Both the position numbers and the translations under genes were made by a program. 64,000 bases of DNA from Flavobacteriales bacterium (GTDB lineage: Bacteria > Bacteroidota > Bacteroidia > UBA10329): NCBI GenBank assembly GCA_020635535.1, contig JACJZP010000013.1:16358-80357 (forward strand), given 5' to 3'. Positions 8,494 through 32,158 of the stretch are shown here, in pieces; positions within the stretch are counted from its first letter, which is position 1; the number at the start of each line of letters is the position of its first letter. A model generated the notes under the pieces. The model worked only from the letters and a program-made list of their open reading frames with translations, was not told the DNA's origin and ran no database searches.

Positions 8494-8567
8494 GGCTCTG
8501 TAGCTCAACTGGATAGAGCACCTCACTACGGATGAGGAGGTTTGGGGTTCGAATCCCTACAGGGTCA
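8494..8567 (+). tRNA. tRNA-Arg (anticodon ACG)
   Basis: Hand-folded cloverleaf. Acceptor GGCTCTG/CAGGGTC (two G-U pairs); D arm GCTC-AACTGGATA-GAGC; anticodon arm CCTCA-CTACGGA-TGAGG (ACG); variable AGGTT; T arm TGGGG-TTCGAAT-CCCTA; discriminator A. CCA is not encoded. Confidence 0.9.
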
Positions 8568-8570
8568 CAC
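8556..8570 (+). repeat. attL core (direct repeat, overlaps tRNA-Arg 3' end)
   Basis: CCTACAGGGTCACAC is identical to 32144-32158. It extends to 18 nt with one mismatch (ATCCCTAC.. versus ATTCCTAC..). Confidence 0.75.
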
Positions 8571-8581
8571 CTAATGTTGTT

Positions 8582-8615
8582 AAGTCCTTGATTTTCAATT
8601 GAAAATCAAGGACTT
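8582..8615 (+). terminator. island-borne hairpin terminator now serving tRNA-Arg
   Basis: Perfect 14-bp stem AAGTCCTTGATTTT / AAAATCAAGGACTT around CAATTG, followed by TTCTTTT. Starts 12 nt after the att core. Confidence 0.5.
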
Positions 8616-8622
8616 TTCTTTT

Positions 8623-8645
8623 ATGGGTGAAACATAGGTAAAACA
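8623..8645 (+). repeat. tandem arm-type repeats, left island end
   Basis: ATGGGTGAAACA followed by TAGGTAAAACA. The same motif pair occurs at 32003-32026. Confidence 0.5.
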
Positions 8646-8889
8646 TTACACCAGTTCGCTCATAGAGCTGTTGCATTATCCGTCATGTTTAATGCAGTTG
8701 GTCGTTTGCCGAGAAATTGAATTGCTGCGTGAAGTGGCAATTCCAGAGTGTTTAATACACCTTGTGCAGTAAAGTTCATCAGTCATTCAATATTTTAACA
8801 ATGAACTTATGAAAGAAGATCGTTGCATTGATTTACTTATTTTTCGTCCGAATGTCAGCGAATAGGTCGCTTTGTTCAACCAACCCCAA

Positions 8890-11800
8890 ATGAGAACACT
8901 TATACTTTTCTTATTGCTTACGCTTTTTGTGGGAAACACCCACATTCAGGCACAGACTCAACCACAGGACACCTCCCTCTATTACTATTACAAAGGCGAG
9001 AAGATTTTTCTCGAGCGGGTACCAGAAGAACTGACAATTACGTTCCGCGAACCAACTTCTCTTAGTCAGGCAGTTGCAGCGTTAACGAAGAACGCTGAGA
9101 GGTTTGAATTTTCAATCGACTCTTCGCGGTTTGAAGATGGTGTCCTGACCATCGGTCTAAAGACACGGTTGACTTCGCTGGCAGGTCAAAGAATGCTCCA
9201 AAGAATGATGCGAGATGAAGCGATAAGCTCGGTATCATCCATCAGGAATGAAGTTCATCTTGAACTTAGGGAGTACTCATCGGTGTTTTATGGCGGTAAG
9301 GCTTTGAAGTTTTCTATTGACACCGACCACCTCTTTGTTTCCTTCAACAATCCAATGGATTTTGAGCGTTTTAAAACCAAAGGAGTGAAAGGGCTCGACC
9401 ATTCCGTTGAGTGGACTTCGCTAAACTCAGCCAAGGCAAGACAGATACCATTGATATTTGACGGTCAAAGGGGGTATCTCGCAACAATGGCCAGACTGGA
9501 ACATTTACAAGAGGTATCCTACATATCTCCTGTACTATTTGATGAAGATGGTGAAACTTTATGGCTATATGAGGATTTTTATGTGGAATTGGGCGCGCAG
9601 GGGAATCTTGATACATTGCTTCACTACGCGCAAGTTTTAGGGTTTTCTGTTTCGCATTGGAGAAATGATGTGTTCCGTTGTACAGTAGACAAATTCTCAC
9701 TTGGTAATTCATTCGAGGTAGCACGATACCTATACAATCTTGATATATTCAATTTTGCCGAACCGGATTTTATTTTTCGGGTATATCCGACCAATGAACA
9801 TTACAGTGAACAATGGGGACTAAACAATTCAGGAACAAATTATCCTGGATATGGATTCTCGTCCCCACCAACTGGTGACCCAAATGCTTCAATTCATGCT
9901 GAAGATGCATGGGCCTTGGTTGGGGGCGGGGATTCAGATCTGATTGTAGCGGTTTTAGACGTATTCCCATCACAAGCCTTGACACACCCTGATAACCCAA
10001 TCGATTACTCTTATGATGCAACCCAGTCAAGTTTTCAAATAATAAATGATGATGAAGATCATGGTGCCCATGGAATTGCTTGTTCTGGAATAATTGCAGC
10101 TGACAACAATAACATAGGTACAAAAGGTGTAGCTTATCTGGTCAAGACTCTTGCAGTCAATGTTGCTTCTGAGTTAACCGCCAATGGTGGTTATGAAACT
10201 AGTCCGGCAATTATTGCAAATGCAATTAACTGGGCTTCGAACTTCAATTGTTCTGTTATTTCTTGTTCTAACAGATGGCCTTTTGAATATAGCTCATTGG
10301 TCAATCCTGCGATAAACAACGCGGTGAACAATGGACGTGACGGCAACGGGATTCCATTTCTGGCGAGTTCAGGTAATGATAACCTGGGCTCTGTTTACTA
10401 TCCAGCATCTGCTGATGGTACTATCGCGGTTGGTGCTTCGACCATGTGTGATGAACGAAAAAGCCCAACCTCGTGTGACGGTGAAACCAGCTGGGGTAGT
10501 CACGGTGGTCCATCATTGGACGTGGTTGCCCCAGGCGTTAAAATTTACACAACAGACATTGTCGGATTCGGAGGCTATAATCCAGCATTCGGAATATTAG
10601 GAGATGGTGCCTATCATTCTCATTTTAGCGGCACTTCTGCCGCGTGTCCGATGGCCGCTGGCGTTATGGCCCTTATTCTATCGGCCAATCCCAACCTCAC
10701 AGCCGACCAAGCACGTTACGTTTTAGAATCAACCTGCGACAAAGTCCGTCCTGACCTTTACGATTATAACACCACTATGCCCAATGGTGAGAGCTGGAAT
10801 GAGGAAGTTGGTTATGGCCGTATCAATGCAGGCAGGGCTGTGGAAAAGGTTATCTACAACAGTTTCTGTCCTGAATTCGATTTCCCCATCATACCCAACA
10901 CATCGTGGCAAACGCACCATTCAATAATTTACGATGATTACTGGAGTCTCTATCGCTTCACTGCAACAGCAGGTGAGACCTATGAGTTCAAAACGTGCTG
11001 TGGAGACGGAGCATCGTCAGATTTTTCTGCCATACTGGAGTTGTCTGATGGATCTTGCGAGTTTATTGCCAACGGGTCTTCTCAACTCACTTGGACAGCC
11101 AATTATTCGGGTAGTGTCTATCTCAAAATTCGCGCAAGCTCTGGAGATGGTCAATATACCATGGCATATAGACGGGTTCTTCCAGAACCGGAGCCTTGTA
11201 CACTTTCTGTCTCTCCTTCGGTCTCGAGTACTTCAACCGGGTACAATGAAGGCTCCAATACCTTTACAGTGAATGCAACCGACAGTTGGAGCATCACCTC
11301 GCCCAACTGCAATTGGATAATTGGTATGGGCCCACTTTCGGGCTTTGGTACTGAGAACGTGACCGTGTACTACGGAGGAAATACCTCTCTCAGTAGTAGG
11401 CAGTGTGATTTCAGTGTGAGTTGTGGCGTCAGTTCTGCAACCTATTCGCTGGTTCAGGCAGGTCCTCAGCTTAGTCTGGGGTCACCTTCAAATGGAGCGA
11501 CCGTTTCCTGTTCTTCAGGGGTAAACTTCAGTTGGTCTTCCAATGTCAGTCCTGTGGAATACCGCATACAGGTTTCCACCGTAAACGACTGGAATCCGGA
11601 AACAGGTTTCTCCAATCCGATCGTTAGCGTTAATACGGGCAGCAATGCATTCTTCAATTGGCAGGGGGCGTCATCGAGCACAACTTATTACTGGACCGTT
11701 CACGTGTACGATGCCGGAACCTATCTTACTTCTGATTATACTCAGCCAAGGGTTTTTACTACAGGTAATTGTGGTGGGGGTAGTGGAGGCTGTAGTGGCA

Positions 11801-14800
11801 CCCCTCAGGTGCTGCTTCAAAGCCCCTCAGATTATACAGTATTTATGGGTTGTGCTGGTACGAGTATTCCATGGAGTTGGACCCCAGTTTCTGGATGTGC
11901 TGTAACGGAATACCAAATCGAGTTTGCTACACAACCTACATTTAACGGAAGTAATGTTGCTACTGAGACGGACAACTTTTTCACGTTCGTGTTCAATTCG
12001 GATTACACATCAAATGTGACCATTTACTGGCGGGTTAGAGGACGCAACCAAAATGGTTGGGGCAGTTGGAGTCAGACAGGAACATTCTACATCAATGCCT
12101 GTGGTGGAGTTGATTGTAATGACCCCTACGAATCGAATAACGACCCATCGATCGGTGATGATTACGAGATTTCTCCAGTGGTCTTTACGAATGACGAGTT
12201 CACATTTAAGACCAGTGGGGCGTGTACGGGTTACTCTGAAAGTAACGAACAGGACTATTTTAAGCTGTCGTTACCATCTGGGTATGACTACACGATAAGT
12301 TCAAGACTGCAGACGGCCTTCGGGTCCACTGATGGTATCAACTATTCTGGCTATACACAATACGCCTCTTGGTCATCTCAGACAGGGAACTGGTCAAATT
12401 GGGATACTCAACAACTTGCTAGTTTTTCGTTGAGCGATGGTGGTACCGCCTATTTTGTTGTTGGGGATTACTACAGCGACCCCAATTTCAGAGGTAGCTA
12501 TTCATTGGAGGTGACAGTGACGAGGGTTGAACTTCCAAAGCCTGATCTCCGTCCCTATACCGCTAGTGGTTGGACAGCTCCAATTATTGCCTCCACCGTT
12601 ACGGGAACCACTTACAGTTCGGGTGTGTACAATACGGATCAGGAGATCTTCATTGATATTGGGTTTTGGAACGCAAGCTCCTCCAGTTGCGGCCCCTTCG
12701 TTACAATGCTGTACTTGGACAATCAACCCCAATTTGGGGCTGCCCCCGGGGGGCTTGCGGGTTACGATGATGAATCGCTGATGGATATTTCCATTGGTAA
12801 CCTATCTGCCGGGTATCATGAACTTAGATTGGTTGTGGATGCGAATTCTGAGGTCATTGAAAGCAATGAGTATAATAATGAATACTCTCTTGTGATATAT
12901 GTGGATCAGGTGTTGCCTAACCTGCGGCCCTTCACACCATCAGGTTACTCATCACCTCTGGTAGTTTCCAACGTTAGCGGCACCACAACAGATGCAGTTG
13001 TTATTAACCAGTTGGACAATGTTTATCTCGACCTTTCTCAGATAAACGATGGATCGGTCAACGCATCGGCCTTTACATCAAAGCTTTATCTAGACAACGT
13101 TGAAATTCTTGATTGGGCCGGTGGTTCCGGTGGGCTACCTGCGGGCAACTATAATCTGTGGAATGACTATAGTTTAGGTAGCGTTTCGGCAGGATTGCAC
13201 GAACTCAAGCTGGTTGTTGATGCAAACAATGCTGTTTCTGAATCCAATGAGTTGGACAATACCTATACAAGAACGTTCAATGTAAGTTGTCAGGCCCCCT
13301 CTCAGCCATCCTCCATATCAGGCAGCGGGGGAGCATGTCAAAATGATGTGTTCACATATTCGGTCTCCGAAGAACCGGGCATTGTTTACTCATGGTCGGT
13401 AAGCGGTGGACAGATCATATCCGGTCAGGGCAACCATATTATTGGGGTCATTTTTAACACACCTGGTAGCCAAGTGGTATCAGTTAGTGCTCTCAATAGC
13501 TGTGGTCAAAGTATTGTTCGTTCCATGAATGTTTTTGTGCATCCAACGATACCTACCACTTATCTGGTCGATACGATTTGTGCTGGGTCCAATTACGAAG
13601 GATATTACAGTTCTGGCAGTTATACTGACACCTATACGGCACAAAGTGGATGTGACAGTGTGCGCGTGTTAAACTTGACCGTCATGCCTAGCGTCAGTGC
13701 GGGATGGCAGTTGCAATCATCAGCTGCTGACATATATTGGAGGTCTGTATCATACGGAAACGGGCTATTCGTGGCTGTGGCAAACAGCGGATCGCAAGAC
13801 GGAAGAATAATGACCAGTCCTGATGGCGCAAATTGGACATTGAGAACAAGCCCTGGAACTGGTTCATGGATGTCTGTATGCTACGGCAATGGGACATTTG
13901 TGGCTGTTGGCGTTGATAATGTAATGACAAGCAATGATGGTCTTACTTGGACTCTACGAACACCCGCTACAGACAATTTTTGGAAATCCGTTACTTATGG
14001 GAATGGACTTTTTGTTGCCGTAGCAAACTCTGGATCCGGGGACCGTATAATGACCAGCTCAGATGGTATTAATTGGGCCTCACAGGTGGTTCAGTATGAT
14101 AAGGCATGGAATTCAGTTGTCTATGGAAGTGGTCGCTTTGTTGCGGTTTGTGGAACCACATTGGGAAGCCAAGTTCTGACAAGTACTGATGGAATCACCT
14201 GGAGCTTTTATAACAGCTCGGTAACACGCAATTGGAGATCTGTTACATATGGCAACGGGCTATTTGTTGCAGTTGCAAACAGTGGCACTAACGATAGGGT
14301 AATGACCAGTTCTAATGGAATCAATTGGACCACCAGACTCGCTGCTACCGACAATAATTGGGAATCTGTTACATATGGTAACGGTAGGTTTGTGGCAGTG
14401 GCCGCATCTGGATCAGGCAATAGGGTAATGACCAGCCCCAATGGCATCAATTGGACATTGGGTGTATCGGCAGCCGACAACAATTGGGAATCTGTAGTAT
14501 ATGGTAATGACCTTTTCGTGGCTGTTGGTAGTACTGGTTCAGGTAATAGGGTCATGGTCTTTACCTTCCCGATTGTAGATACAAGAACATCCTGTGGACC
14601 ATTCACATGGATAGACGGCAATACATATTCACAAAACAACACCACGGCCACCCAATTATTGACCAGCACATTCGGCTGTGATTCATTGGTTCAGTTGAAC
14701 CTCACTGTAAGTGCGCCTGTGAGTACATCTTTCGCCCAGACTATCTGCGCGGGGGAAAGCTACGAGGGCTATTCTATAGCAGGTATTTATACCGATACTT

Positions 14801-17589
14801 TTACTGCAAATAATGGCTGTGATAGTATCCGAACGGTCAATCTTAGTGTACTTCCTTCATACACTACATCTCATGCAGATACGATATGTGCTACAGAAAC
14901 ATTCAATGGTTATTCCAACTCGGGCATCTATACGGACACATTGATAGCTGTCAATGGGTGCGACAGTATCAGAACACTTGATTTGACTGTTTTGCCGCTC
15001 AGTGATTGTTTCAGTCTTTGCCCGGATGGAATTGTTGTTGATTGCTCAAATTTAATCCTCCACCAGAATGGCCCCGTGGCAACTGACGAAGGAGTTGCCT
15101 TTGAGGGTTTTGACGCAAGCACCTTACAAACATCGTTGGGGCATAATTTTTTGGGTTCGAATGCTACGCAAGGTTCATTTATGGTTGCGGATGATTTCGT
15201 GGTTACGAATCCAACTGGGTGGGTTCTTAACGAAGTTGTTCTATTCGGGTACCAAACCGGTTCAAGTTTCACGTCCACGATAACTGGGTTGTATGTGCGT
15301 ATTTGGGATGATATTCCGGGGGTCGGCAACGTGATTTTTGGTGACCTCGCCACAAATATCCTTTCCTCATCCGAATGGACCGGAGTGTATCGGGCGTCAG
15401 AACAAAACATTAGTAGTACCCAGAGACCCATTATGCGGGTACATGGTTCATTACCTAATCTGCAACTGCCCCAAGGCACTTATTGGCTGGAGTGGTCGCT
15501 TCAGGGATCCCTAAATGCACCCGTGTGGGTGCCAGCACTTTCACAACATAATGTTGCCGTTACTGGTAATGGCCTAATTTCTTCAAGTACTAGCAATACC
15601 TACACTCCGACAACACATAACAATGGAGACACTTATGGGCTGTCGTTCCAACTTCTTGGAAATGAGCAGATGGTGTTTTCTACAACTGAGTTTGGCTGTA
15701 CAGCAAACATTCAATTACCAACACCTTCCATACTTGAATGTCGGAATGCCGCTTTGGTCAACAGTTTCAACGGGACGGATAATGCATCTGGCATATATCC
15801 CGTTGGTCTGACAACTGTGTTATGGGAAGTTACTGACCCACAGGGAATACAATCTACCTGTAGCTTTGATGTTCAGGTTGATTTGACCGATTCCTTATCC
15901 GTATCGCCACCAGTAAGTATGGGAGATGTGTCATTCTGTTCTGGCTCACCAACCGTTGCGCTCTCCGTTACCCCTCCGCAAGGGGCCACGGTAGATTGGT
16001 ACGATGCAAACGAAACTCTTGTTGCCTCAAGCACGAATTCGTTCACACCAACAACCTCTGGGGTGTATTTCGCAGAGTCCCGAGTGCACAGTGAACTATC
16101 TGTAGGAGATTATTATGAAGGCGGGATAATCGCACACATTTTACAACCTGGAGATATTGGGTATGTTCAGGGTGAGGTAAATGGGTTTATTGTTTCAGAT
16201 TCTGATTTGGGATTGGCAGAGTGGGGATGTGGTGGAACTTTGGCTGGAGGGACACTCCTTACTTTAGGTTCAGGTAAAGACAATACTGAATCTATTCTAA
16301 GTTTTCATGATAATTTAACAGATTACTACACCAATCCTACTCAATGTCATGTTGAAAATGATGGAACGGTAGCTGCAAAACTTGTAGCGGATACGGTCAT
16401 TGGTGGTTACGATGACTGGTATTTGCCGAGTAAAGATGAGCTGAATAAGTTGTTCATGAATCTTCATGCTCAGAGTATCGGTGATTTTCAGAAGAACACT
16501 TATTATAGCTCCAGTGAGACCAGTGCAACTGGGGCCGCGGGTCAGGTTTTTGGTACTTTTCTTTCTTTCGGTCCTGGAGACCAGATTAACTTTACCAAAT
16601 ATGGTGCTCATGGCATCCGGGCTGTACGATCATTCAGAACAACTGGTATTGGCTGTACAAGTGAAAACAGAACTCCTGTAGAATTACATGAAATTCCCGC
16701 AATCACTTCCAATGTCACGCAGAGCATCTGCACAGGGCAGAGTTTTGAGGGGTATTCTGCCACAGGTACCTACACGGACACGTTCATCTCACAGGGCGGT
16801 TGTGACAGTACGCGCACACTCGACCTGACGGTTGTCCCTGCCATCACCAGTGCGTTTGCCGAGACCATCTGCACGGGTCAGAGCTTCGAGGGATACACGT
16901 CCACGGGCATTTACACGGACACGTTCATCTCACAGGGCGGTTGTGACAGTACCCGAACACTCGACCTGACGGTTGTCCCTGCCATCACCAGTTCGTTTGC
17001 CGAGACCATCTGCACGGGTGAGAGCTTCGAGGGATACACGTCCACGGGCATTTACACGGACACGTTCATCTCACAGGGCGGTTGTGACAGTACGCGAACG
17101 CTCGACCTGACAGTACACAACCTTCCTTCAGCGCCTGTAATTACCGATTTAGGCGGTTACTTGCAATCATCTTATGCAACCGGTAACCAGTGGTACTTGA
17201 ATGGGCAGGAATTATCTGGAGAAACAGGACAGGTATTGAACAATCCCACCTCAGGTAGCTACACCGTGGAATATACTGACGCTAATGGTTGTACTGAAAT
17301 TTCAAGCCCAGTGGTTGTGATGGTTACTGGATTGTCAGACATGAACAGTACTGGTTTGATTGAGGTGTATCCGAATCCAAATAGCGGGTCGTTTTTAGTC
17401 AATACGGGAACGTTAGAGGTTAGGGAAATCAGAGTGTTTAATTCGTTAGGAAAATTGGTTGAATTCAAATCTGACCTATCGTCACAATCGGGAGGTTCTT
17501 ATGATTTCTATCTCAATGCAGCAGGGGTTTACTCCATTGTTATTGTTGGCGAATCTGAAGTTTACGCAAAAAAGGTTGTGGTTAATTAA
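8890..17589 (+). CDS. giant secreted multidomain protein: S8 subtilisin-like peptidase plus adhesin-type modules plus T9SS type A C-terminal sorting domain (2899 aa)
   Basis: ATG 8890 gives signal peptide MRTLILFLLLTLFVGNTHIQAQ (the track start 8872 is TTG). S8 triad contexts: VAVLDV, HGAHGIACSG, SGTSAACPMAAG. Two CARDB-like units (LRPYTASGW.., LRPFTPSGY..). Seven propeller-type repeats. HYR-like segment (..VGLTTVLWEVTDPQGIQSTCSFDVQV). DUF1566/Lcl-C-like segment (GGYDDWYLPSKDELNKL). Seven Cys-motif modules. C-terminal EVYPNPNSGSFLV...YAKKVVVN. Confidence 0.85.
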   Translation: MRTLILFLLLTLFVGNTHIQAQTQPQDTSLYYYYKGEKIFLERVPEELTITFREPTSLSQAVAALTKNAERFEFSIDSSRFEDGVLTIGLKTRLTSLAGQRMLQRMMRDEAISSVSSIRNEVHLELREYSSVFYGGKALKFSIDTDHLFVSFNNPMDFERFKTKGVKGLDHSVEWTSLNSAKARQIPLIFDGQRGYLATMARLEHLQEVSYISPVLFDEDGETLWLYEDFYVELGAQGNLDTLLHYAQVLGFSVSHWRNDVFRCTVDKFSLGNSFEVARYLYNLDIFNFAEPDFIFRVYPTNEHYSEQWGLNNSGTNYPGYGFSSPPTGDPNASIHAEDAWALVGGGDSDLIVAVLDVFPSQALTHPDNPIDYSYDATQSSFQIINDDEDHGAHGIACSGIIAADNNNIGTKGVAYLVKTLAVNVASELTANGGYETSPAIIANAINWASNFNCSVISCSNRWPFEYSSLVNPAINNAVNNGRDGNGIPFLASSGNDNLGSVYYPASADGTIAVGASTMCDERKSPTSCDGETSWGSHGGPSLDVVAPGVKIYTTDIVGFGGYNPAFGILGDGAYHSHFSGTSAACPMAAGVMALILSANPNLTADQARYVLESTCDKVRPDLYDYNTTMPNGESWNEEVGYGRINAGRAVEKVIYNSFCPEFDFPIIPNTSWQTHHSIIYDDYWSLYRFTATAGETYEFKTCCGDGASSDFSAILELSDGSCEFIANGSSQLTWTANYSGSVYLKIRASSGDGQYTMAYRRVLPEPEPCTLSVSPSVSSTSTGYNEGSNTFTVNATDSWSITSPNCNWIIGMGPLSGFGTENVTVYYGGNTSLSSRQCDFSVSCGVSSATYSLVQAGPQLSLGSPSNGATVSCSSGVNFSWSSNVSPVEYRIQVSTVNDWNPETGFSNPIVSVNTGSNAFFNWQGASSSTTYYWTVHVYDAGTYLTSDYTQPRVFTTGNCGGGSGGCSGTPQVLLQSPSDYTVFMGCAGTSIPWSWTPVSGCAVTEYQIEFATQPTFNGSNVATETDNFFTFVFNSDYTSNVTIYWRVRGRNQNGWGSWSQTGTFYINACGGVDCNDPYESNNDPSIGDDYEISPVVFTNDEFTFKTSGACTGYSESNEQDYFKLSLPSGYDYTISSRLQTAFGSTDGINYSGYTQYASWSSQTGNWSNWDTQQLASFSLSDGGTAYFVVGDYYSDPNFRGSYSLEVTVTRVELPKPDLRPYTASGWTAPIIASTVTGTTYSSGVYNTDQEIFIDIGFWNASSSSCGPFVTMLYLDNQPQFGAAPGGLAGYDDESLMDISIGNLSAGYHELRLVVDANSEVIESNEYNNEYSLVIYVDQVLPNLRPFTPSGYSSPLVVSNVSGTTTDAVVINQLDNVYLDLSQINDGSVNASAFTSKLYLDNVEILDWAGGSGGLPAGNYNLWNDYSLGSVSAGLHELKLVVDANNAVSESNELDNTYTRTFNVSCQAPSQPSSISGSGGACQNDVFTYSVSEEPGIVYSWSVSGGQIISGQGNHIIGVIFNTPGSQVVSVSALNSCGQSIVRSMNVFVHPTIPTTYLVDTICAGSNYEGYYSSGSYTDTYTAQSGCDSVRVLNLTVMPSVSAGWQLQSSAADIYWRSVSYGNGLFVAVANSGSQDGRIMTSPDGANWTLRTSPGTGSWMSVCYGNGTFVAVGVDNVMTSNDGLTWTLRTPATDNFWKSVTYGNGLFVAVANSGSGDRIMTSSDGINWASQVVQYDKAWNSVVYGSGRFVAVCGTTLGSQVLTSTDGITWSFYNSSVTRNWRSVTYGNGLFVAVANSGTNDRVMTSSNGINWTTRLAATDNNWESVTYGNGRFVAVAASGSGNRVMTSPNGINWTLGVSAADNNWESVVYGNDLFVAVGSTGSGNRVMVFTFPIVDTRTSCGPFTWIDGNTYSQNNTTATQLLTSTFGCDSLVQLNLTVSAPVSTSFAQTICAGESYEGYSIAGIYTDTFTANNGCDSIRTVNLSVLPSYTTSHADTICATETFNGYSNSGIYTDTLIAVNGCDSIRTLDLTVLPLSDCFSLCPDGIVVDCSNLILHQNGPVATDEGVAFEGFDASTLQTSLGHNFLGSNATQGSFMVADDFVVTNPTGWVLNEVVLFGYQTGSSFTSTITGLYVRIWDDIPGVGNVIFGDLATNILSSSEWTGVYRASEQNISSTQRPIMRVHGSLPNLQLPQGTYWLEWSLQGSLNAPVWVPALSQHNVAVTGNGLISSSTSNTYTPTTHNNGDTYGLSFQLLGNEQMVFSTTEFGCTANIQLPTPSILECRNAALVNSFNGTDNASGIYPVGLTTVLWEVTDPQGIQSTCSFDVQVDLTDSLSVSPPVSMGDVSFCSGSPTVALSVTPPQGATVDWYDANETLVASSTNSFTPTTSGVYFAESRVHSELSVGDYYEGGIIAHILQPGDIGYVQGEVNGFIVSDSDLGLAEWGCGGTLAGGTLLTLGSGKDNTESILSFHDNLTDYYTNPTQCHVENDGTVAAKLVADTVIGGYDDWYLPSKDELNKLFMNLHAQSIGDFQKNTYYSSSETSATGAAGQVFGTFLSFGPGDQINFTKYGAHGIRAVRSFRTTGIGCTSENRTPVELHEIPAITSNVTQSICTGQSFEGYSATGTYTDTFISQGGCDSTRTLDLTVVPAITSAFAETICTGQSFEGYTSTGIYTDTFISQGGCDSTRTLDLTVVPAITSSFAETICTGESFEGYTSTGIYTDTFISQGGCDSTRTLDLTVHNLPSAPVITDLGGYLQSSYATGNQWYLNGQELSGETGQVLNNPTSGSYTVEYTDANGCTEISSPVVVMVTGLSDMNSTGLIEVYPNPNSGSFLVNTGTLEVREIRVFNSLGKLVEFKSDLSSQSGGSYDFYLNAAGVYSIVIVGESEVYAKKVVVN
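13738..14565 (+). repeat. seven in-frame ~42-aa repeats (W-x-SV-x-YGNG-x-FVAV ... MTS-x-DG-x-NW), probable 7-bladed beta-propeller
   Basis: Read from the translation: WRSVSYGNGLFVAVANSG.., WMSVCYGNGTFVAVG.., WKSVTYGNGLFVAVANSG.., WNSVVYGSGRFVAVCG.., WRSVTYGNGLFVAVANSG.., WESVTYGNGRFVAVAASG.., WESVVYGNDLFVAVGSTG.. Confidence 0.6.
16693..17115 (+). repeat. three tandem 141-bp (47-aa) coding repeats, copies 2 and 3 nearly identical
   Basis: Units start at 16693, 16834 and 16975. The peptide unit is VPAITS-FAETICTG-SFEGYTSTGIYTDTFISQGGCDSTRTLDLTV. The period was checked on the nucleotide sequence (GTTGTCCCTGCCATCACCAG recurs 141 nt apart). Confidence 0.9.
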
Positions 17590-17696
17590 TCAGGGATAGC
17601 CTAATTATACATTTCGGAGCAGCCCAACGCAAAAGCACCCAAAATTTTCTTCCGTTGTTGTAAGCAGATAGCTTCGTGTAACTAATTGTTACAACG

Positions 17697-18083
17697 ATGG
17701 CAAAACTTGTTACAACCAAAGAGAAGTACGGGATTTCGGTAGCAACCCGAATTGACCCGGAAATGGCCCACCAAATTTCAGAGAGAGCCGAACGGCTTGG
17801 TGTCAGCTTTGCAAAAATGTTAGGCATTCTTGTGTCTAAAGGTTTTAACCCTCAGGAACCTATTTACATTGAGAACAGGGAAGAGGAGGAGCGGCTGAAT
17901 AATCGGATTTCAGAATTGGAATCAGAAGTAGAAGAACTTCGAGATGATATCGATGAGCAGTCACAACTATACAGAAACACCGCTGCTGAGCTTATCAATC
18001 AAGTAGCAGTCAATGACACAGAGAAAATCGCGTATTCCGAACTGTATAATCAAATTCTAAATGAGCAACGAGATGGATTTTAA
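17697..18083 (+). CDS. small ribbon-helix-helix-like (CopG/Arc-type) protein with acidic coiled-coil tail
   Basis: The N-terminus ISVATRIDPEMAHQISERAERLGVSFAKMLGILVSKG has a beta-helix-helix pattern typical of RHH. The C-terminal heptad-like region is EEEERLNNRISELESEVEELRDDIDEQ. An AATTGTTACAA motif sits just upstream. Confidence 0.4.
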   Translation: MAKLVTTKEKYGISVATRIDPEMAHQISERAERLGVSFAKMLGILVSKGFNPQEPIYIENREEEERLNNRISELESEVEELRDDIDEQSQLYRNTAAELINQVAVNDTEKIAYSELYNQILNEQRDGF

Positions 18084-18294: not shown

Positions 18295-18297
18295 ACG

Positions 18298-22583: not shown

Positions 22584-22587
22584 TAGC

Positions 22588-24486: not shown

Positions 24487-24564
24487 TTATGTTCTCTCAA
24501 AATTTTCAAGTATCCGTTTCTTCAATTCATCCCCTTTTTCAAACTGCTGGGTAAGGGTGGCTTT
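24487..24564 (-). pseudogene. relic copy of the hsdM 3' end (25 codons plus stop)
   Basis: The minus strand reads KATLTQQFEKGDELKKRILENFERT*. The real HsdM C-terminus is KATLTQQFEKGEELKRQILANFEKL*. 56 nt (24510-24565) match 25571-25626 with 3 mismatches. Confidence 0.6.
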
Positions 24565-25547: not shown

Positions 25548-27167
25548 CTATAACTTTTCGAAATTAGCCAGTATCTGTCTCTTCAATTCCTCCCCTTTTT
25601 CAAACTGCTGGGTAAGGGTGGCTTTGAGGGTTTCCATTTTTTCTTCAAATGGAATGCCGTCATCCTCTTCGGCTTCGGTGCCCACGTAGATGCCCGGGGT
25701 CAGTTTGTAGTCCTGTGCCTGCACTTCTTGCAGGGTGGCGGAGCGGCAGAAGCCGTCTTGGTCTGTATAAGGTTGAGATTGCCCCCCTGACGTTTCGAGA
25801 GCCTCAACGTCCGCTTCAGGGCTCGTGCGCCATGCGTGATAGGTGTCGGCAATGCGGGCAATGTCGGTATCGGTAAATACGCGCAGCTTGCGGCTGGCCA
25901 TGGTGCCCATTTTGCTGGCATCAATAAAGAGTATCTCATCCATACGCTGGCGGTGGGTGCCATCCTTGCCATCGCGGTTCTTGCTCAGTATAAAGAGGCA
26001 AGCGGGGATGCCTGTGGTAAGGAAGAGCTTATCGGGCAGGCGCACAATGGCATCTATCATACCGTTATCTACCATGTGCTGACGCACGGCCTTCTCGCCA
26101 CTGCTGTTGGAGGTCATGGCGCCATTGGCCATTACGATGCCTGCGGTGCCTGTATCACTGAGGTGGTGCCAGAAGGTCTGCATCCACATGTAGTTGGCGT
26201 TGCCATCGGTGGTAAAGGTTTCGCGCGGGCCAAAGAGGCGCGGGTCGTTCTCGGGCAGGTCTTCGGGGTGCCAGCCACTTACATTGAAGGGTGGGTTGGC
26301 TATCACGTAGTCGGCCTTCAGGTCGGGGAACTTGTCATCAAGCAAAGAGTTGCCCAGTTTGATGTCGAAACTAAGGTTGCGCAACATGAGGTTCATGAGG
26401 CACAGGCGCAGGGTCTGCGCGGTGCGCTCCTGCCCGTAAATAGAGATGTTGCTTTTGCTGCCGCCATGCTCGTTGATGAACTTGAGGCTTTGCACAAACA
26501 TGCCCCCGCTACCACAGGCCGGGTCGAAAATGCGGCCTTCGTAAGGCTCCAGCATTTCTACCAACAGGCGCACAATGCTGCCCGGGGTGAAGAACTGCCC
26601 TGCACCGCTGCCTTCGGCCATGGCAAATTTGCCGATGTAGTATTCGTAAATGCGGCCAAGGATGTCGCTTTCGGGGTTCTCCTTCTCCGAGAACTTGGGG
26701 TGGCTGAGCAGGTTGATGATGCCAGCGGTCTGCTTGGCTGAAAGTTCGCTCTTGACAAAAATCCTTGGTAGCAGGTTCTGCAACTGCGGGTTGTATTCGG
26801 TAAGCAGTCCTTGGAGCATGTCGAAGGCATCATCCACCAATACCTTGATGTTGTCCTGCTCGGCATTGTCCTTCAGGTATTGCCATGACGCCTTTTCGGG
26901 TATGACGAACGCATTCTTAGCGCGGTACTCGTCTGCGTCTTCCAACACGTAGTTTATCTCATCGGTATCGATGGTGTAGCGGTCAGACTTCGGGTCGTTG
27001 AGCTGCGCTTGCAGTTCTTCCTTCACCACATCGTGGCGTTCGCTGAGGTGCTTGAGGAACACCAGCGGCAGGATGTAGTTTTTGTAGTTGTTCTCCGATA
27101 CGGCACCGCGCAACTCATTGGCGGCATCCCAGAGTTCTTTTTCAAAGTTGATGTCTGCTTTGGGCAT
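25548..27167 (-). CDS. hsdM: type I restriction-modification methyltransferase subunit M (N6-adenine)
   Basis: SAM motif I IFDPACGSGGMF, catalytic motif IV VIANPPFN, and an HsdM N-terminal helical domain. 539 aa. Confidence 0.9.
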   Translation of the reverse strand: MPKADINFEKELWDAANELRGAVSENNYKNYILPLVFLKHLSERHDVVKEELQAQLNDPKSDRYTIDTDEINYVLEDADEYRAKNAFVIPEKASWQYLKDNAEQDNIKVLVDDAFDMLQGLLTEYNPQLQNLLPRIFVKSELSAKQTAGIINLLSHPKFSEKENPESDILGRIYEYYIGKFAMAEGSGAGQFFTPGSIVRLLVEMLEPYEGRIFDPACGSGGMFVQSLKFINEHGGSKSNISIYGQERTAQTLRLCLMNLMLRNLSFDIKLGNSLLDDKFPDLKADYVIANPPFNVSGWHPEDLPENDPRLFGPRETFTTDGNANYMWMQTFWHHLSDTGTAGIVMANGAMTSNSSGEKAVRQHMVDNGMIDAIVRLPDKLFLTTGIPACLFILSKNRDGKDGTHRQRMDEILFIDASKMGTMASRKLRVFTDTDIARIADTYHAWRTSPEADVEALETSGGQSQPYTDQDGFCRSATLQEVQAQDYKLTPGIYVGTEAEEDDGIPFEEKMETLKATLTQQFEKGEELKRQILANFEKL

Positions 27168-27251: not shown

Positions 27252-28223
27252 TTAAGGGAAGTGGATCTCTCCCAGCGCATGCAATACTTCAGAAGGGTTC
27301 ATTCCAAGCCAAAAATTTGACTCTGGAGTGGTAGGGTCCAAGTTGGTATTCAGATCAAGGATGTAATCTGCCAGGTCCAGACCTTGTTGTCTTTCGCTAG
27401 CGCTTGCATGCTTTTCAAGCGTGTCGGCAACACGGACTGATCTTGCGTGAACAAGCGTTGCTTTGTGGTTCCAGCCATCAAACGCTCCAAGATCCGGAAA
27501 TAGGACAACGTGCCTGTCTGAAAACAGGCCAGAACTGGAATTCAATTGATGTAACGTTTTGCTGCCCGATGCAAGCCAAACAAAATCTGGAAATTGGATA
27601 GAAGCAATAATGGCGGTCTTTTCACTCTCTACAATTGCGACCACCTTATCGGGGAATTTTTGTAACAAGTGCTCCCCAAAGAAGCATTGCTTTAGATTGA
27701 AGTTTTGAAGGTGTAGTTCTGAATGCACCCAACAAATATGATTGTGCGGTTCCTTGACCCTTTTGCCGGTTGATTCGTAGAGCATGATTTTGCCAGTACG
27801 GACTTTAGATCCATGATCAACTTGCCAGAAAACTGTTGCGCCCGACCACTTTTTTGACGCACCGATCATGTATAGTTCGAGAGCCTCGTTCACCAGTTGC
27901 TTATCAAACCTGGAATAAAGGAATTCAGTGAGGTTGTTTTTGCGGTTTAACGTTGGGACTACGCGTTTCCAGTCGATTGTGTCAATTGCTCTGTTTGAAG
28001 GTTTTCCAGTTGTAACAAGTCTGTGGCCTTCTGCGAAAGCGGTTTCTTGGTAGGGGTTTAGGTGGTAACCGCAATTTACCTCTCTGTCACATCGTCCGAA
28101 TTTGTATTCCAAATATTCATTGGTCTGAGAGTCTTTGTAGCGCACATATCTCCTTTTGTTACAATGAGGACAGTGGTGTTTTTTGCTGCCTTTTTCGAGT
28201 TGGTATATGAACGCTTCAGCCAT
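27252..28223 (-). CDS. putative primase-like replication protein (N-terminal zinc ribbon, Toprim-like C-terminal half)
   Basis: CPHCNKRRY...CDREVNCGYH gives four Cys/His ligands. VAIVESEKTAII followed by VVLFPDLGAFDGW resembles Toprim E and acidic motifs. Its position in the int-xis-ATPase-primase module also supports the call. Assigned by eye only. Confidence 0.4.
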   Translation of the reverse strand: MAEAFIYQLEKGSKKHHCPHCNKRRYVRYKDSQTNEYLEYKFGRCDREVNCGYHLNPYQETAFAEGHRLVTTGKPSNRAIDTIDWKRVVPTLNRKNNLTEFLYSRFDKQLVNEALELYMIGASKKWSGATVFWQVDHGSKVRTGKIMLYESTGKRVKEPHNHICWVHSELHLQNFNLKQCFFGEHLLQKFPDKVVAIVESEKTAIIASIQFPDFVWLASGSKTLHQLNSSSGLFSDRHVVLFPDLGAFDGWNHKATLVHARSVRVADTLEKHASASERQQGLDLADYILDLNTNLDPTTPESNFWLGMNPSEVLHALGEIHFP

Positions 28224-28285: not shown

Positions 28286-29440
28286 TCAGCTCTTTGTAAC
28301 AGGGGAAAGTTTCAGCCAAACAGTTCGCCCAATTTTGTAGTCATCTAGCCTTTTGGTGGATTGATCTTCCTTTGCAACGATAGGAGTCTGGTCTTCAATG
28401 AGGTGATCAAGGCGTTCTCGGATGGTGTTTTCACTACATATGAACGATTCAGCGAGAATCGAAATCAAATCAGTTTTCTTGATGTCTTTCTTTTTGTTCA
28501 TGAGTACCCGAACGGCTTCTTTAACACCTTCTATTGGTGCCTTCAGTTGTCGCTCCTGTCTTGTCTGAACAATTTCATCTTCGCTTGCCGGTATTAGAGT
28601 GTGCTGCTCCTGGCAATATTTGACAAACAGGTCTGGGTGTCGTTGTGATCTTCTGCATTTCAGATAACTGATTTTGATGATGTCCGATTCTCCAGAGGAA
28701 TTGTCTGCGCGAGAAATCTGCATGACGGTTGACGCTTTATTGGAAAGCTCTGTTCCAAGATGCCCTCTTGCTTTTTGACTATTAGGGTTTTCGTGTATTA
28801 CTGCCACAAACGTTGCGTTGTGGTTGTTTACCGTACTATTCATCATATCAATCAGCTGGAGGCTGTCCTCGGCATTATTGAAGTCAGAAACACAATCTGA
28901 TAATACGTCCAGAATAACTACAATGTGGTTTTTAGAGCTATGTCTAATGTATTCAAGAAACTCATGGAGTGCTTCAAATCGTTCCGATCTCTTAAAGTCC
29001 AATAAGGATGAGTATCTCAGATTGGGAATGTCCTCCGTGGTTTTGATGCCACATAATTTCTGGATTGATTGTATAGCGGCTGCAAACTGATCTTTCCAGT
29101 TTCGTTCAGTGTCCAGATAAATGACATCAATAGGAGAATTCTTGTTGCCTCTAAAACCAACCGAGGAGCCCCCTGATAGAAGCGAAACACATATGATTTC
29201 AGCTAACCGGCTTTTATGTACGCCATGCTGCCCTTGAATAACGCTTATGGTGTTGGGAAATATCACAGGTAATTCTTCCCAAGTAATCAGCGGTGGAGCA
29301 AACCTGATGTTCGATTTTTTGGTTTCTCTTATTAGCTCTTCTGTCTTTAGTAGTTTTAGAAGCTTTTCTGAATGAGTAGGTGAGGAGTAGCTATTAACAT
29401 CCTTGGCCAGTTCTTCCATGTTTTTCAAAGGTTCAGACAT
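28286..29440 (-). CDS. P-loop (RecA-fold, RepA/DnaB-like) ATPase of the island replication module
   Basis: Deviant Walker A GQHGVHKS and Walker B-like HIVVILDVLSD. 1-nt overlap with the upstream HTH gene (29440). Confidence 0.45.
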   Translation of the reverse strand: MSEPLKNMEELAKDVNSYSSPTHSEKLLKLLKTEELIRETKKSNIRFAPPLITWEELPVIFPNTISVIQGQHGVHKSRLAEIICVSLLSGGSSVGFRGNKNSPIDVIYLDTERNWKDQFAAAIQSIQKLCGIKTTEDIPNLRYSSLLDFKRSERFEALHEFLEYIRHSSKNHIVVILDVLSDCVSDFNNAEDSLQLIDMMNSTVNNHNATFVAVIHENPNSQKARGHLGTELSNKASTVMQISRADNSSGESDIIKISYLKCRRSQRHPDLFVKYCQEQHTLIPASEDEIVQTRQERQLKAPIEGVKEAVRVLMNKKKDIKKTDLISILAESFICSENTIRERLDHLIEDQTPIVAKEDQSTKRLDDYKIGRTVWLKLSPVTKS

Positions 29441-29715
29441 TACTTGAAAGCTTGACGTTTGTGGTCATTCAGAAGTTTGTGGACATCCGAAAGTCGATAG
29501 TAAACTTTGGAGCCTATCTGAGAGAAGGATACTAACCCCTGATCTCGATAGGACTGAGCCGTCCGTTTTGAGATTTTCAGGAGTTGGCAGAACTCCTGAT
29601 TGTCGAGCCAGACATTTTCTGGGTCTGGTTCGTTTTCGAGTGCCTTTTTCTCGATTTCTTCAAGCCTTGTTAGAATAGCTTGAAATGCATCTGATTGTAT
29701 TGTAATTACTTCCAT
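29440..29715 (-). CDS. excisionase-type helix-turn-helix DNA-binding protein
   Basis: 91 aa. LLKISKRTAQSYRDQGLVSFSQIGSKVYYRLSDVHKLL is a MerR/excisionase-type HTH pattern. It lies in the integrase-proximal module. Confidence 0.55.
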   Translation of the reverse strand: MEVITIQSDAFQAILTRLEEIEKKALENEPDPENVWLDNQEFCQLLKISKRTAQSYRDQGLVSFSQIGSKVYYRLSDVHKLLNDHKRQAFK

Positions 29716-29811: not shown

Positions 29812-30783
29812 TCATTTATCGAATTCGTTCATTTTGTGTTTGAACACGTCAGCAAAATATGCCTTACGTGAACTGTAACTTGCAAGATCTTCAGTTTGTC
29901 TTTTAAGGAACTCGTCTTCGCTCATCGCGTATTTTGAATCAACTAGTGATACTAATAGGCCAGTTATCCCTCGAGCCTCGTTTGTGCTCCTTGCGATTTC
30001 GTTGTTAACCAGAAACCTGTAGACGATATGCATCATCCTGTCTTTTCGTAATCGAAAAAACTTTGAGGGACTTCGGTTCATCTGATTTTCCAAATCTGGA
30101 TTATTCAAGTGTCTGTACAAGGCTTCGTTTAGTTCGGGTAATTTTCTGAGCGCATTAGTTAATGGAAGTAAAGCTCTTGAGGTTGAAACATTGAATGACT
30201 TGGTATCATAATAAGTATCCTCCAAAAACCTTGGGTCGAATCCAACATCTCGTTTTTTCTGATTCGGTTCCTTGAGGTTTGGCAGGCTTTGGGTTTTATA
30301 GTCTTTATGTTTTCCCAGCTTAAGACTGATGTTGACAATTTCTACTCCGTGTTCATTCAAATGTTCGAAGGCGTTGCGCAGGGAAATAGTATTCTCTGCA
30401 ACGATATGGTTATCATTGCCAAGTACATTGAAGTTTGTACGCCTAAAGTTTGACAAAGGCACACATAGATCATCGACATAGCTATGGTCAATAGATTGTT
30501 CTTTGCATAATTCAAGAACAGCCGAATACAAACCTTCCTCGACCCAGTAGTTGGAATAGAATTCAAACAGTACAGGGTTGTTTGTGAAATACGGGTCTTT
30601 CAACTCATCAACGATTCTCATTCCAAGCACAGGTTCCCAGTATTCTACATCTGGAAATATTTTGTGTCCCTTGATTTTAGGCTTTGCCTTGGCTTTGTCT
30701 TCGAATTCTACATCGACTTCTCCTTGGAAAAAATCGAGTCTATATATTGAGCTTTTCTCGGTTGGTTCTTCTTTATTCATCAT
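29812..30783 (-). CDS. hypothetical island protein (323 aa from ATG 30783)
   Basis: The track start 30816 overlaps int. An ATGATG at 30783 lies 1 nt after the int stop (TGA 30787-30785). No recognisable motif. Confidence 0.4.
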   Translation of the reverse strand: MMNKEEPTEKSSIYRLDFFQGEVDVEFEDKAKAKPKIKGHKIFPDVEYWEPVLGMRIVDELKDPYFTNNPVLFEFYSNYWVEEGLYSAVLELCKEQSIDHSYVDDLCVPLSNFRRTNFNVLGNDNHIVAENTISLRNAFEHLNEHGVEIVNISLKLGKHKDYKTQSLPNLKEPNQKKRDVGFDPRFLEDTYYDTKSFNVSTSRALLPLTNALRKLPELNEALYRHLNNPDLENQMNRSPSKFFRLRKDRMMHIVYRFLVNNEIARSTNEARGITGLLVSLVDSKYAMSEDEFLKRQTEDLASYSSRKAYFADVFKHKMNEFDK

Positions 30784-30784
30784 T

Positions 30785-31978
30785 TCAATCGTTGAATAGA
30801 TCAATAGCACTATCAAGATCCGCGTTTACAATTTTGGCGTAGACCTGAGTTGTTCGGATGGATTTATGGCCAAGTAGTTTTGAAACATGTTCAATTCGCA
30901 TGCCTCTTCGGAGCATTCGAGTAGCCCATGTGTGTCTTGACATATGAAAATGTAGATGCTTCTCAATACCTGCTTTCTTAGCTATTTCCCCCAAATTCTT
31001 ATTGACATAGGCATTCGCGGATGAGGTGTGTCTAAGAACTACTTTGTCATTCTGCAGGTCAGTTGTCTCTGGTATCAATCCAAAGATGAAGGATTCCTTA
31101 CTCCAATTTTCTGGAAGCGAGTCAATAATGGCAAGAGCGGTTTTGCCAAGTTTTATGTTCAGTTGTTGGCCGGTTTTTCGGGTGGTGAAGGTTAATCGTT
31201 CACCATCAAAGTTTTTCCATTTAAGGGTGAGCAGATCTGATATTCTGATGCCAGCTGTGTATGACGCAAAAACAAACAGATCTCGATGCCTGCACATTCT
31301 GGAATTTTCCTTGAGTTGTAAGTTTTTGAGCTTCTCTAGCTCCTCATCTGTCAAAAACTCTATTTCAACCTCTTTCTTTCTGATCTTATAAATGTCAAAT
31401 GGGTTCCTTCCTTGCTGCAGTATTCCTTCTCTAGAAGCTTCATTCAATATGGTTCTCAAACCACTCATATTTGAAGCTACAGTATTTGTTGAGTTTCCGA
31501 GATGATTCAGTAAATAGTGCTCATAGTTGTTGAGCCATTTGACATCTAAATGTTCGAGGATGATGTCCTTTCCGTTTAAGTAGGTTTCAACTTTTGCTAC
31601 AACGGTTCGCATTCTCTTGATCATGCCTGGTTTGTTGATACTTTCTCTTCGTTTAACGAATGAATCAGCATAGGTCAAGAAGCCAGTTGAACGATGGCGT
31701 AGAACATCTAAAGCCTCATTCTTTCTGTTTGTGGTCTCTGATTCAATTACGGCTTCTCTAACCTCAGCAAGCTTTTGTTGAACAAGGTGGTTGAAGCGCA
31801 CGGAGTTTGCGAAGGTTCTTTTCGCTTGTTCTTTAATTGGGTCCCAATACTTTGGTGGAATTGATACTCCAAGAGACTTGTATTTAGGTCTCCTGTCAAC
31901 GATTACTCTAACATAAAGAGGAGCTTCCCCGTTTGATTTAAGTTTATCTTCCCGGAGAATGGGTTTTATTGAAGGCAT
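30785..31978 (-). CDS. int: site-specific tyrosine recombinase (integrase) with N-terminal arm-binding-type domain
   Basis: The C-terminal catalytic region HMSRHTWATRMLRRGMRIEHVSKLLGHKSIRTTQVYAKI carries HxxR ... H ... Y. ASYTAGIRISDL carries the first Arg. The N-terminus (KSNGEAPLYVRVIVDRRPKYKSLGVSIPPKYWD) is typical of Bacteroidota integrases. Confidence 0.9.
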   Translation of the reverse strand: MPSIKPILREDKLKSNGEAPLYVRVIVDRRPKYKSLGVSIPPKYWDPIKEQAKRTFANSVRFNHLVQQKLAEVREAVIESETTNRKNEALDVLRHRSTGFLTYADSFVKRRESINKPGMIKRMRTVVAKVETYLNGKDIILEHLDVKWLNNYEHYLLNHLGNSTNTVASNMSGLRTILNEASREGILQQGRNPFDIYKIRKKEVEIEFLTDEELEKLKNLQLKENSRMCRHRDLFVFASYTAGIRISDLLTLKWKNFDGERLTFTTRKTGQQLNIKLGKTALAIIDSLPENWSKESFIFGLIPETTDLQNDKVVLRHTSSANAYVNKNLGEIAKKAGIEKHLHFHMSRHTWATRMLRRGMRIEHVSKLLGHKSIRTTQVYAKIVNADLDSAIDLFND

Positions 31979-32002
31979 GATTTTGAATTATTTCACTGCA
32001 AA

Positions 32003-32026
32003 ATAGGTAAAACAATGGGTAAAACA
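32003..32026 (+). repeat. tandem arm-type repeats, right island end (in the int upstream region)
   Basis: ATAGGTAAAACA then ATGGGTAAAACA, starting 25 nt upstream of the int start. A degenerate TAGGTGAAAAG lies at 32124-32134. Confidence 0.5.
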
Positions 32027-32143
32027 ATTGATTCATTATTGTGCTATTTGATACTTCGAATCATCTCTAAAGAAACTCGTTTGAGTTTATTATTAGGTTC
32101 AAAATGATGAAATTAGAAGAATCTAGGTGAAAAGTATGTGATT

Positions 32144-32158
32144 CCTACAGGGTCACAC
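32144..32158 (+). repeat. attR core (partial tRNA-Arg 3' end copy)
   Basis: CCTACAGGGTCACAC is identical to 8556-8570. No tRNA body lies upstream of it. Confidence 0.75.

Follow-up and report, generated by a model that had tools for sequence, protein, structure and literature searches.

How did the 23.6 kb of DNA that follow a tRNA-Arg(ACG) gene in an uncultured Flavobacteriales bacterium from wastewater or activated sludge come to lie there? The locus sits in a window of 64,000 nt (the whole stretch of DNA that was analysed), within which positions 8571-32158 are read here, with high confidence, as an integrative genomic island that its own tyrosine integrase put into the 3′ end of the tRNA gene by site-specific recombination. 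The island is cleanly delimited and population-polymorphic, and it leaves the present understanding of genomic islands unchallenged. Classical tRNA-integrated islands are already known; particular to this one are a type IX secretion system (T9SS) protease as cargo, a composite defence cargo, a hotspot with multiple occupants as its site, and a backbone that lacks a relaxase.

The tRNA target and its duplicated 3′ end

The boundaries of the island are set by a tRNA gene, two copies of a short direct repeat and an integrase gene:

8494-8568, + strand: tRNA-Arg(ACG), intact, the integration target (ARAGORN; the only tRNA in the window)
8556-8570, + strand: attL core, a 15-bp direct repeat over the tRNA 3′ end (repeat search; empty-site contigs diverge right after 8570)
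32144-32158, + strand: attR core, a displaced copy of the tRNA 3′ end without the tRNA body (empty-site contigs enter at 32144 behind a tRNA body)
30785-31978, − strand: tyrosine integrase, 397 aa, with Arm-DNA-bind_5, Phage_int_SAM_5 and Phage_integrase domains (Pfam)

The 15-nt core, CCTACAGGGTCACAC, occurs exactly twice in the 64 kb when both strands are searched, where shuffled sequences predict 0.01 copies. Extended to 17 nt, the core retains its second copy with one mismatch, and no third or internal att-like site was found in the window with this 17-nt query and up to three mismatches allowed. The original prediction, made from the sequence of the window, had placed the repeat at these two positions, where it is indeed present, and the worry that the 15-mer might be a chance match falls away, the sequence being unique in the window apart from the two att copies. 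ARAGORN and the open reading frame (ORF) coordinates likewise agree with its description of the second copy, which has no tRNA body and lies 166 nt upstream of the integrase ATG (31978). The locus accordingly shows a tRNA 3′-end duplication made up of one intact tRNA copy and one body-less copy. The integrase that adjoins the att site has an intact catalytic signature, with residues R245, K268, H345, R348, H371 and Y380 all present and conserved without exception when aligned with 13 relatives.

Empty and occupied sites in metagenomes

Activated sludge and wastewater metagenomes that contain sequence of the window (runs coded X1, X2, X3, X6, X22 and X23) were used to look for the site without the island, Logan contigs being aligned to both junctions. 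Joined in silico, the flanks give an empty site, attB, of GGTTCGAATC-CCTACAGGGTCACAC-GGAAAAAGGAGG. At the left junction, contigs in X1, X2, X3 and X23 follow the window up to 8570 and switch there to GGAAAAAGGAGGCAATTGCCTCC…, the sequence from 32159 on; at the right junction, those in X1, X3 and X23 pass from …GGTTTGGGGTTCGAATC, the tRNA body, into the window sequence at 32144. A single X23 contig of 1467 nt joins both flanks via one core: its positions 1-829 correspond to window positions 7742-8570 with 20 differences and its positions 815-1447 to 32144-32776 with 3 differences, the two matches overlap in the 15-bp core only, and depth over island sequence in X23 is zero. The same unoccupied, single-core arrangement is found in L013, one of several related loci that are coded here with an L and reach 10 kb from the query gene (L002 is CAYWET010000030.1; L012 is JACJZQ010000006.1, with an island at 14553-24416). 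The proposal of an integrative island at tRNA-Arg(ACG), which came with the suggestion to look for its empty site, is therefore supported: the X23 contig, the X1, X2 and X3 junctions and L013 supply that site in conspecific or related genomes, its joints are exactly those predicted, and the polymorphism of the 23.6 kb sits exactly at the repeats.

In depth the island is uniform, and it behaves as one coherent unit. In X1, where depths are rough (about 72% of the run was read, and tRNA k-mers are common to many organisms), the flanks have a depth of ~80-90, the whole island a uniform 24-27 and the empty-junction unitig ~92, so that a single sample contains both the occupied and the empty form. 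X22, which comes from a different study and year, contains 100%-identical pieces all along the island, and its occupied attL lies on the flank haplotype of the empty X23 contig, with which it has 7 single-nucleotide polymorphisms in common. A single haplotype with the island in X22 and without it in X23 points to a recent gain or loss of the element, not to an ancient split.

Several observations weigh against this account. Besides the roughness of the X1 depths, G+C over the entire island is no different from that of its flanks (0.455), the exact integrase was found elsewhere in one other short contig only, from the same kind of sample, and there is no evidence of an identical element in a second species. 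The circular form would carry the junction attP, predicted as GAAAAGTATGTGATT-CCTACAGGGTCACAC-CTAATGTTGTTAAG (…GTATGTGATT-core-CTAATGTTG…), and none was present in the contigs of X1, X2, X3, X22 and X23, contigs being assemblies that drop rare forms; no loose end there had sequence of the right island end ahead of 8556 or of the left island end past 32158. Lastly, the absence of a relaxase, a recognisable origin of transfer (oriT), a type IV secretion system (T4SS) or a packaging gene leaves transfer from cell to cell unexplained.

The missing attP junction and the lack of an identical copy in another species would also suit a fixed remnant, an element that integrated once and has since lost excision, with the empty sites representing lineages that never received it. 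This is quite unlikely, given that the backbone ORFs are all intact, the catalytic set of the integrase is complete, the att cores are identical over 15 bp, one flank haplotype has the island in X22 but not in X23, and both forms occur together in X1.

Two side observations concern the left end. The occupied attL of X22 carries C8570T, a change in the last base of the core, which marks either the edge of the strand-exchange region or plain strain variation. A 247-nt contig of X2 (depth 12.8) contains the left end of the island from 8561 on, joined to unrelated upstream sequence (…CTCCTCCAAGGGTTCGACTTTAGTCCTTTG), and could stem from a related element that has entered a secondary or different target, or that belongs to another host. 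Exact-protein look-ups with two flank proteins gave no matches.

The integration and excision module

Behind the integrase, four further genes on the same strand make up the backbone of the island:

29812-30783, − strand: orfX, 323 aa, in a conserved slot between int and xis (no Pfam match)
29440-29715, − strand: HTH_17 protein (Pfam; PHROG excisionase families)
28286-29440, − strand: AAA_25 ATPase (Pfam; 45% identical to its counterpart in L005; same slot in CP103138.1, a Bacteroides fragilis record discussed below)
27252-28223, − strand: Zn_ribbon_16 and DUF6371 protein, PG0870-related, in the slot beside the ATPase (Pfam, NCBIfam)

The original prediction had described an int/xis/ATPase/primase module. 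Its first three members stand as the integrase, the HTH_17 protein and the AAA_25 ATPase, the primase being a guess for the DUF6371 protein. The HTH_17 protein is 58-74% identical in relatives and is probably, from its sequence, an excisionase or recombination directionality factor; with the integrase, this excisionase-like gene gives the island an integration/excision module of its own.

The orfX product belongs to a small family, with 29 representatives among 1.84 billion proteins. Its AlphaFold2 (AF2) model reached a predicted local distance difference test score (pLDDT) of 88.5 with an alignment of 24 sequences, as against 35 with an alignment of 3 sequences, and a search with the AF2 model returned no match in PDB or BFVD. 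Sequence comparison gave no PDB match either, and Pfam searches over 24 family members were uninformative as to function. In L003 and L005, the slot is filled by homologues with 25-27% identity. Homology to the slot-2 'transposase' of CP103138.1 or to a hypothetical protein of the Bacteroides plasmid pBUN2 was rejected, there being no similarity (hhalign probability <1% for the slot-2 protein). As a guess from position alone, orfX would assist excision or targeting in the manner of the slot-2 proteins of NBU1 and Tn4555.

Excision of NBU1 requires int, orf2, orf2x, orf3 and prmN1. For NBU1 and Tn4555 alike, element-encoded products beyond Int and a directionality factor are needed for excision (PMC5704250). 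Excision of the present island would need the HTH_17 protein as directionality factor and, by analogy with those two elements, perhaps the AAA_25 and DUF6371 proteins as well as orfX.

Candidate arm sites and terminators at the island ends

Both ends of the island carry further elements that were not part of the original prediction, namely pairs of candidate arm-type sites and a replacement terminator:

8582-8615, + strand: perfect 34-bp palindrome followed by a T-run, belonging to the left att arm and read as a replacement tRNA terminator from the island (terminator scan; conserved in the sister island of L012)
8626-8645, + strand: tandem GGTGAAACA / GGTAAAACA, candidate arm-type integrase sites of the left arm (motif search)
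32006-32026, + strand: tandem GGTAAAACA, twice, candidate arm-type sites of the right arm, just upstream of int (motif search)
32157-32190, + strand: original tRNA terminator hairpin, split from the tRNA by the island (terminator scan; directly 3′ of the tRNA in empty-site contigs)

The 64 kb contain four copies of the motif GGTRAAACA, every one of them on the + strand and arranged in tandem pairs (8626/8637 and 32006/32018), which lie 56-75 nt (left) and 118-138 nt (right) inside the cores; by a simple positional estimate, the chance probability of this placement is ~6e-11. The same tandem TTGTTTTACC pair recurs 35-80 nt upstream of the int genes of L002, L003, L005 and L006. Among 80 more distant loci, whose integrases are 35-48% identical, at least 13 have it upstream of int as well. 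Because the integrase has an arm-binding domain, the pairs are probable arm-type integrase sites. The right pair may have an int-promoter or operator role, and the left pair, far from any int gene, favours the arm-site reading over a promoter or operator. Since the left pair lies at the tRNA end, the element begins at the tRNA and the protease gene next to it is inside.

In the proposed mechanism, the core would be bound by the catalytic and core-binding domains of the integrase, and the tandem GGTRAAACA pairs on both arms by its N-terminal Arm-DNA-bind_5 domain. Strand exchange would take place within the 15-bp identity, so that the tRNA would be regenerated, and the island-supplied hairpin at 8582-8615 would take the place of the original one at 32157-32190.

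The 34-bp palindrome has a k-mer depth of ~250, against ~36 for the island (runs X1 and X2), and the same hairpin must therefore sit on many other elements or loci in the community.

Relation to known elements and the route of transfer

The closest comparison in gene order is with CP103138.1, a 10-kb circular B. fragilis cfxA record which, from its cfxA gene and gene content, we take to be Tn4555-like. Its order is int (with the same three domains), a 285-aa protein without a Pfam match, an HTH_17 excisionase, AAA_25, DUF6371, a mobilization protein and cfxA, and the module of the window is collinear with it except for the absent mobilization gene. The Tn4555/NBU order of integrase, unknown protein, HTH_17, AAA_25 and DUF6371 is thus present in full, a collinearity, minus the relaxase, that goes beyond the original prediction. 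At the level of sequence the likeness is uneven. The DUF6371 proteins, whose homologues are found on Bacteroides plasmid records, are 35-45% identical between the window and Bacteroides mobilizable elements, and the integrases 24-30%; the AAA_25 proteins of the window and CP103138.1 share the Pfam domain without BLASTP similarity, and orfX is unrelated to the slot-2 protein of CP103138.1. The island further differs from elements of the Tn4555/NBU type in lacking a mobilization or relaxase gene and a recognisable oriT, in its size (23.6 kb versus 10-12 kb), in its cargo (a giant T9SS protease and restriction-modification (R-M) and defence genes, where those elements carry antibiotic resistance) and in its host, an environmental Flavobacteriales bacterium in place of gut Bacteroides. 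The target is of a familiar kind, as NBU1 and NBU2 insert into the 3′ ends of tRNA-Leu and tRNA-Ser (PMC5704250).

On the plasmid pBUN2 of Bacteroides uniformis (NZ_AP019726.1), the order runs from int to an HTH gene, DUF3987, DUF6371, MobC, a relaxase and then a type I R-M locus that encloses a RhuM gene. Identity to the window counterparts is 45% for the DUF6371 protein and 40% for the RhuM domain, but pBUN2 differs in being a plasmid, in having MobC and the relaxase between DUF6371 and the R-M genes, and in having DUF3987 in place of AAA_25.

A precedent within the Flavobacteriales is the 10K island of Riemerella anatipestifer, which lies 3′ of a tRNA-Arg, is bounded by direct repeats, encodes an IntN1-like tyrosine integrase and is polymorphic among strains; it has been shown by experiment to excise to a circle, and its integrase and attP suffice for integration (PMC6764341). 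Host order and tRNA-Arg site are shared with the present island, and the integrases are alike by description. The Riemerella island differs in its att repeat, which is 53 bp long and includes the terminator, compared with 15 bp here, and in its length of 10 kb with 12 ORFs. As with that island, the 15-bp core, arm sites and integrase described here are a possible site-specific integration tool for Flavobacteriales. Classical tRNA islands and islands with P4-like integrases share with the window the tRNA 3′-end repeat, a terminal integrase, accessory or defence cargo and strain-level presence and absence. In contrast to these, the int gene of the window lies at the far end, away from the intact tRNA, and its product is of the Bacteroidota arm-binding (IntN1-like) type and not of the P4 type.

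Searches of Pfam, NCBIfam and PHROGs gave no relaxase or MobC match for any island ORF and no T4SS, virion, capsid, terminase or packaging gene in the island, which bears out the earlier statement that relaxase, conjugation and virion genes are absent. All ORFs of at least 80 aa in 8571-32158 are accounted for and none encodes a T4SS or a type IV coupling protein, a content outside that of an integrative and conjugative element. As for an integrative and mobilizable element (IME), the island lacks a relaxase or MobC of its own by these searches, and an oriT is not recognisable from the sequence. Because IME membership fails on the relaxase, the element is best filed as a tRNA-integrated genomic island of Bacteroidota with a relaxase-less backbone of the NBU/Tn4555 type. 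With this backbone, the island could be mobilised in trans via an unrecognised oriT, or move by transformation or transduction.

The first of these routes would make the island a canonical IME, which excises and is transferred by a co-resident conjugative element through an oriT of the island. This is unlikely, though it draws on the backbone order of the circular cfxA element, on the mobilization or relaxase gene that follows DUF6371 there and in pBUN2, on the 35-45% identity of the DUF6371 proteins, on the existence of IMEs without a relaxase of their own (PMC5704250), and on the conserved left-end palindrome being far more abundant than the island. Against it, relaxase and MobC genes are missing from the island, the 84 bp between the DUF6371 gene and hsdM are too little for an oriT-mob region, and no conjugative element is visible in the window. 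Nor do the 25 top families listed for the 6 kb that follow int in 30 related loci include a relaxase or MobC. The first five ORFs past int in these 30 loci include HTH_17 in 26 and, further, various domains of primase or helicase type (DUF5906, BT4734-like_N, VapE, DUF3987, DUF6371 and PriCT_2).

The VapE, DUF5906 and PriCT_2 primase-helicase genes of these neighbourhoods bear on a further alternative, that of a prophage remnant or a phage satellite of the P4 or phage-inducible chromosomal island (PICI) kind that is packaged by a helper. The combination of int, an AlpA-like HTH_17 gene, ATPase and primase-like genes and defence cargo resembles P4-like satellites, and L006, at the same site, has lysozyme genes. 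The alternative is nonetheless highly improbable: PHROGs and Pfam reveal no capsid, terminase, portal or size-redirecting gene, the PHROGs matches being limited to integrase, excisionase and Doc-like proteins, no close relative of the integrase was found among 2.9 million IMG/VR contigs, and the orfX fold has no viral match. For lack of IMG/VR relatives and PHROGs structural matches, a viral origin was rejected.

The relaxase-less NBU/Tn4555-like backbone raises a modest question of how such elements spread. A bolder answer, to which only a slim chance is given, is that the island represents a distinct family of Flavobacteriales elements that has kept the NBU/Tn4555 excision and replication backbone, has lost the relaxase family-wide, encodes a rapidly evolving orfX whose fold has no counterpart in PDB or BFVD, and moves large T9SS substrates and defence systems by a route undescribed for Bacteroidota elements. 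The abundant, conserved 34-bp left-end palindrome would then be, as one possibility, a transfer or packaging signal recognised in trans.

Related loci and the tRNA-Arg hotspot

A genome scan with the 1473-aa protein encoded directly to the left of the tRNA gene found ten loci in Flavobacteriales metagenome-assembled genomes, at 80-86% identity, and tRNA-Arg(ACG) stands directly after the gene in nine of the ten. L013 has the uninterrupted arrangement of flank gene, tRNA-Arg, terminator, MORN1, MORN2 and CHU_C genes, an order that, judged by this comparison, is the ancestral one. Other genomes have other occupants. The sister island of L012, in the same tRNA-Arg, aligns with the window over the first ~95 nt past the core, which comprise the hairpin and tandem arm-like repeats in a variant form (GGTGAGACG / GGTGTAACA), after which all differs; its cargo, in the 10 kb covered, which stop short of its right end and integrase, includes AraC, alpha-amylase, sulfotransferase, KAS III, GT2 and GNAT genes. 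The L012-type variant of the left end was also found in contigs of X1, X2 and X6 (window 8543-8623). In L006, an integrase 61% identical lies beside the MORN genes at the same site with other content, the lysozyme genes included. Between tRNA-Arg and the MORN genes, L008 has a 3.6-kb insert without an integrase (14452-18135), which is flanked by 47-nt direct repeats spanning the tRNA 3′ end and the start of the terminator and which encodes a 502-aa protein with a T9SS C-terminal domain (CTD); it is possibly a decayed island. From the variable occupancy of the tRNA-Arg site in L013, L012, L006 and L008, this site is an integration hotspot.

L002, L003 and L005 encode integrases 64-71% identical to that of the window (69% for L002). 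In four relatives with integrases 61-71% identical, a terminator hairpin and a displaced tRNA-3′-like fragment lie 100-210 nt upstream of int; the fragment (GTGACCC…GA.TCA) is seen in L002, L003 and L005, and the core co-varies with the host tRNA. Past int, these three loci have an orfX homologue or another slot protein, HTH_17, and then AAA_25 and DUF6371 or DUF3987, followed by variable cargo such as a ~1680-aa STAND-like protein, type I R-M genes or GIY-YIG genes. No tRNA was found downstream of int in any of 84 related loci, each spanning 10 kb from int.

The ~1680-aa protein (L002, 14552-19609; L003, 9083-14125) lies directly after the DUF3987 gene, has faint nSTAND1/3 and AAA_16 matches and is possibly a defence NTPase. 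In L011, the gene right after tRNA-Arg (8028-9605) encodes a 525-aa S8 subtilase with a T9SS C-terminal domain, and T9SS substrates recur beside tRNA-Arg in several genomes.

Cargo of the island

Between the left arm and the backbone, the island carries the following genes:

8890-17589, + strand: giant secreted S8 subtilase/adhesin, ~2900 aa, with CARDB, PKD and Lcl_C domains and a T9SS C-terminal sorting domain (Pfam)
17697-18083, + strand: 128-aa ORF with a ribbon-helix-helix-like N-terminus (by eye) and a coiled coil (translation)
18298-21300, − strand: HsdR, type I restriction subunit (Pfam HSDR_N, SWI2_SNF2, T1RH-like_C; PADLOC REase_I, E = 6e-248)
21297-22583, − strand: HsdS, type I specificity subunit (Pfam Methylase_S, twice; PADLOC Specificity_I)
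22588-24441, − strand: AAA_15/AAA_21 ATPase, 617 aa, of the GajA/PtuA/AriA type, inside the R-M operon (domain searches, PADLOC)
24539-25531, − strand: RhuM and Fic/Doc protein, inside the R-M operon (Pfam; PADLOC candidate PDC-S23, E = 7e-136)
25548-27167, − strand: HsdM, type I methyltransferase (Pfam N6_Mtase, HsdM_N; PADLOC)

The protease gene is an ORF of 2905 codons whose signal peptide was read from the translation and whose depth is uniform with the rest of the island. HsdR, HsdM and HsdS of the type I R-M system are all present and full length, and the embedded AAA_15/AAA_21 ATPase is, by its domains, a probable defence gene. The giant T9SS protease/adhesin and the type I R-M operon with two inserted genes were found as first described. 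An 8.7-kb protease/adhesin gene and a composite type I R-M and defence locus thus travel as the cargo of one integrase, a joint cargo that bears on how strains in wastewater communities differ in phage resistance and in proteolysis at the cell surface.

The G+C of this cargo is a mosaic, with 0.54 for hsdR and hsdM, 0.40-0.44 for the embedded ATPase, the RhuM-Fic gene and hsdS, 0.39-0.45 for the neighbours of hsdR and hsdM taken together, and 0.46 for the protease gene. It could hint at a composite, in which a protease element and an R-M/int element lie in tandem, or in which the protease gene belongs to the chromosome and mobility is confined to the right 14 kb. The int module moreover assembles as a separate 5-kb Logan contig, and other T9SS-CTD genes stand beside tRNA-Arg in L008 and L011. 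Such a composite is very improbable, however, as the core does not recur inside the island even at up to three mismatches, the arm-site pairs lie at the two outer ends only, the empty site lacks the whole 23.6 kb with the protease gene included, and the X1 depth is uniform at ~24-27 across the island. For want of an internal core, the tandem or composite island was rejected in favour of a single integrative island that begins at the tRNA.

The 128-aa ORF next to the protease gene had no match in Pfam or NCBIfam, and its identification as MobC was rejected, as it has no similarity to the MobC of pBUN2.

Flanking genes

The left flank consists of an ABC permease, tpiA, prmA and the conserved 1473-aa protein (4024-8445), which has a signal peptide and no Pfam or NCBIfam domain. 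The right flank consists of two MORN lipoproteins and two giant CHU_C/T9SS surface proteins. Housekeeping genes had been expected on both sides; tpiA and prmA agree with this on the left, but the MORN and CHU_C/T9SS genes on the right do not, their synteny being conserved in relatives all the same. The two CHU_C/T9SS genes (33648-39077, 1809 aa, and 39089-44419, 1776 aa) are adjacent and seemingly paralogous; both match the same segments of L008 and L013, at 63-77% identity, and the pair is conserved there.

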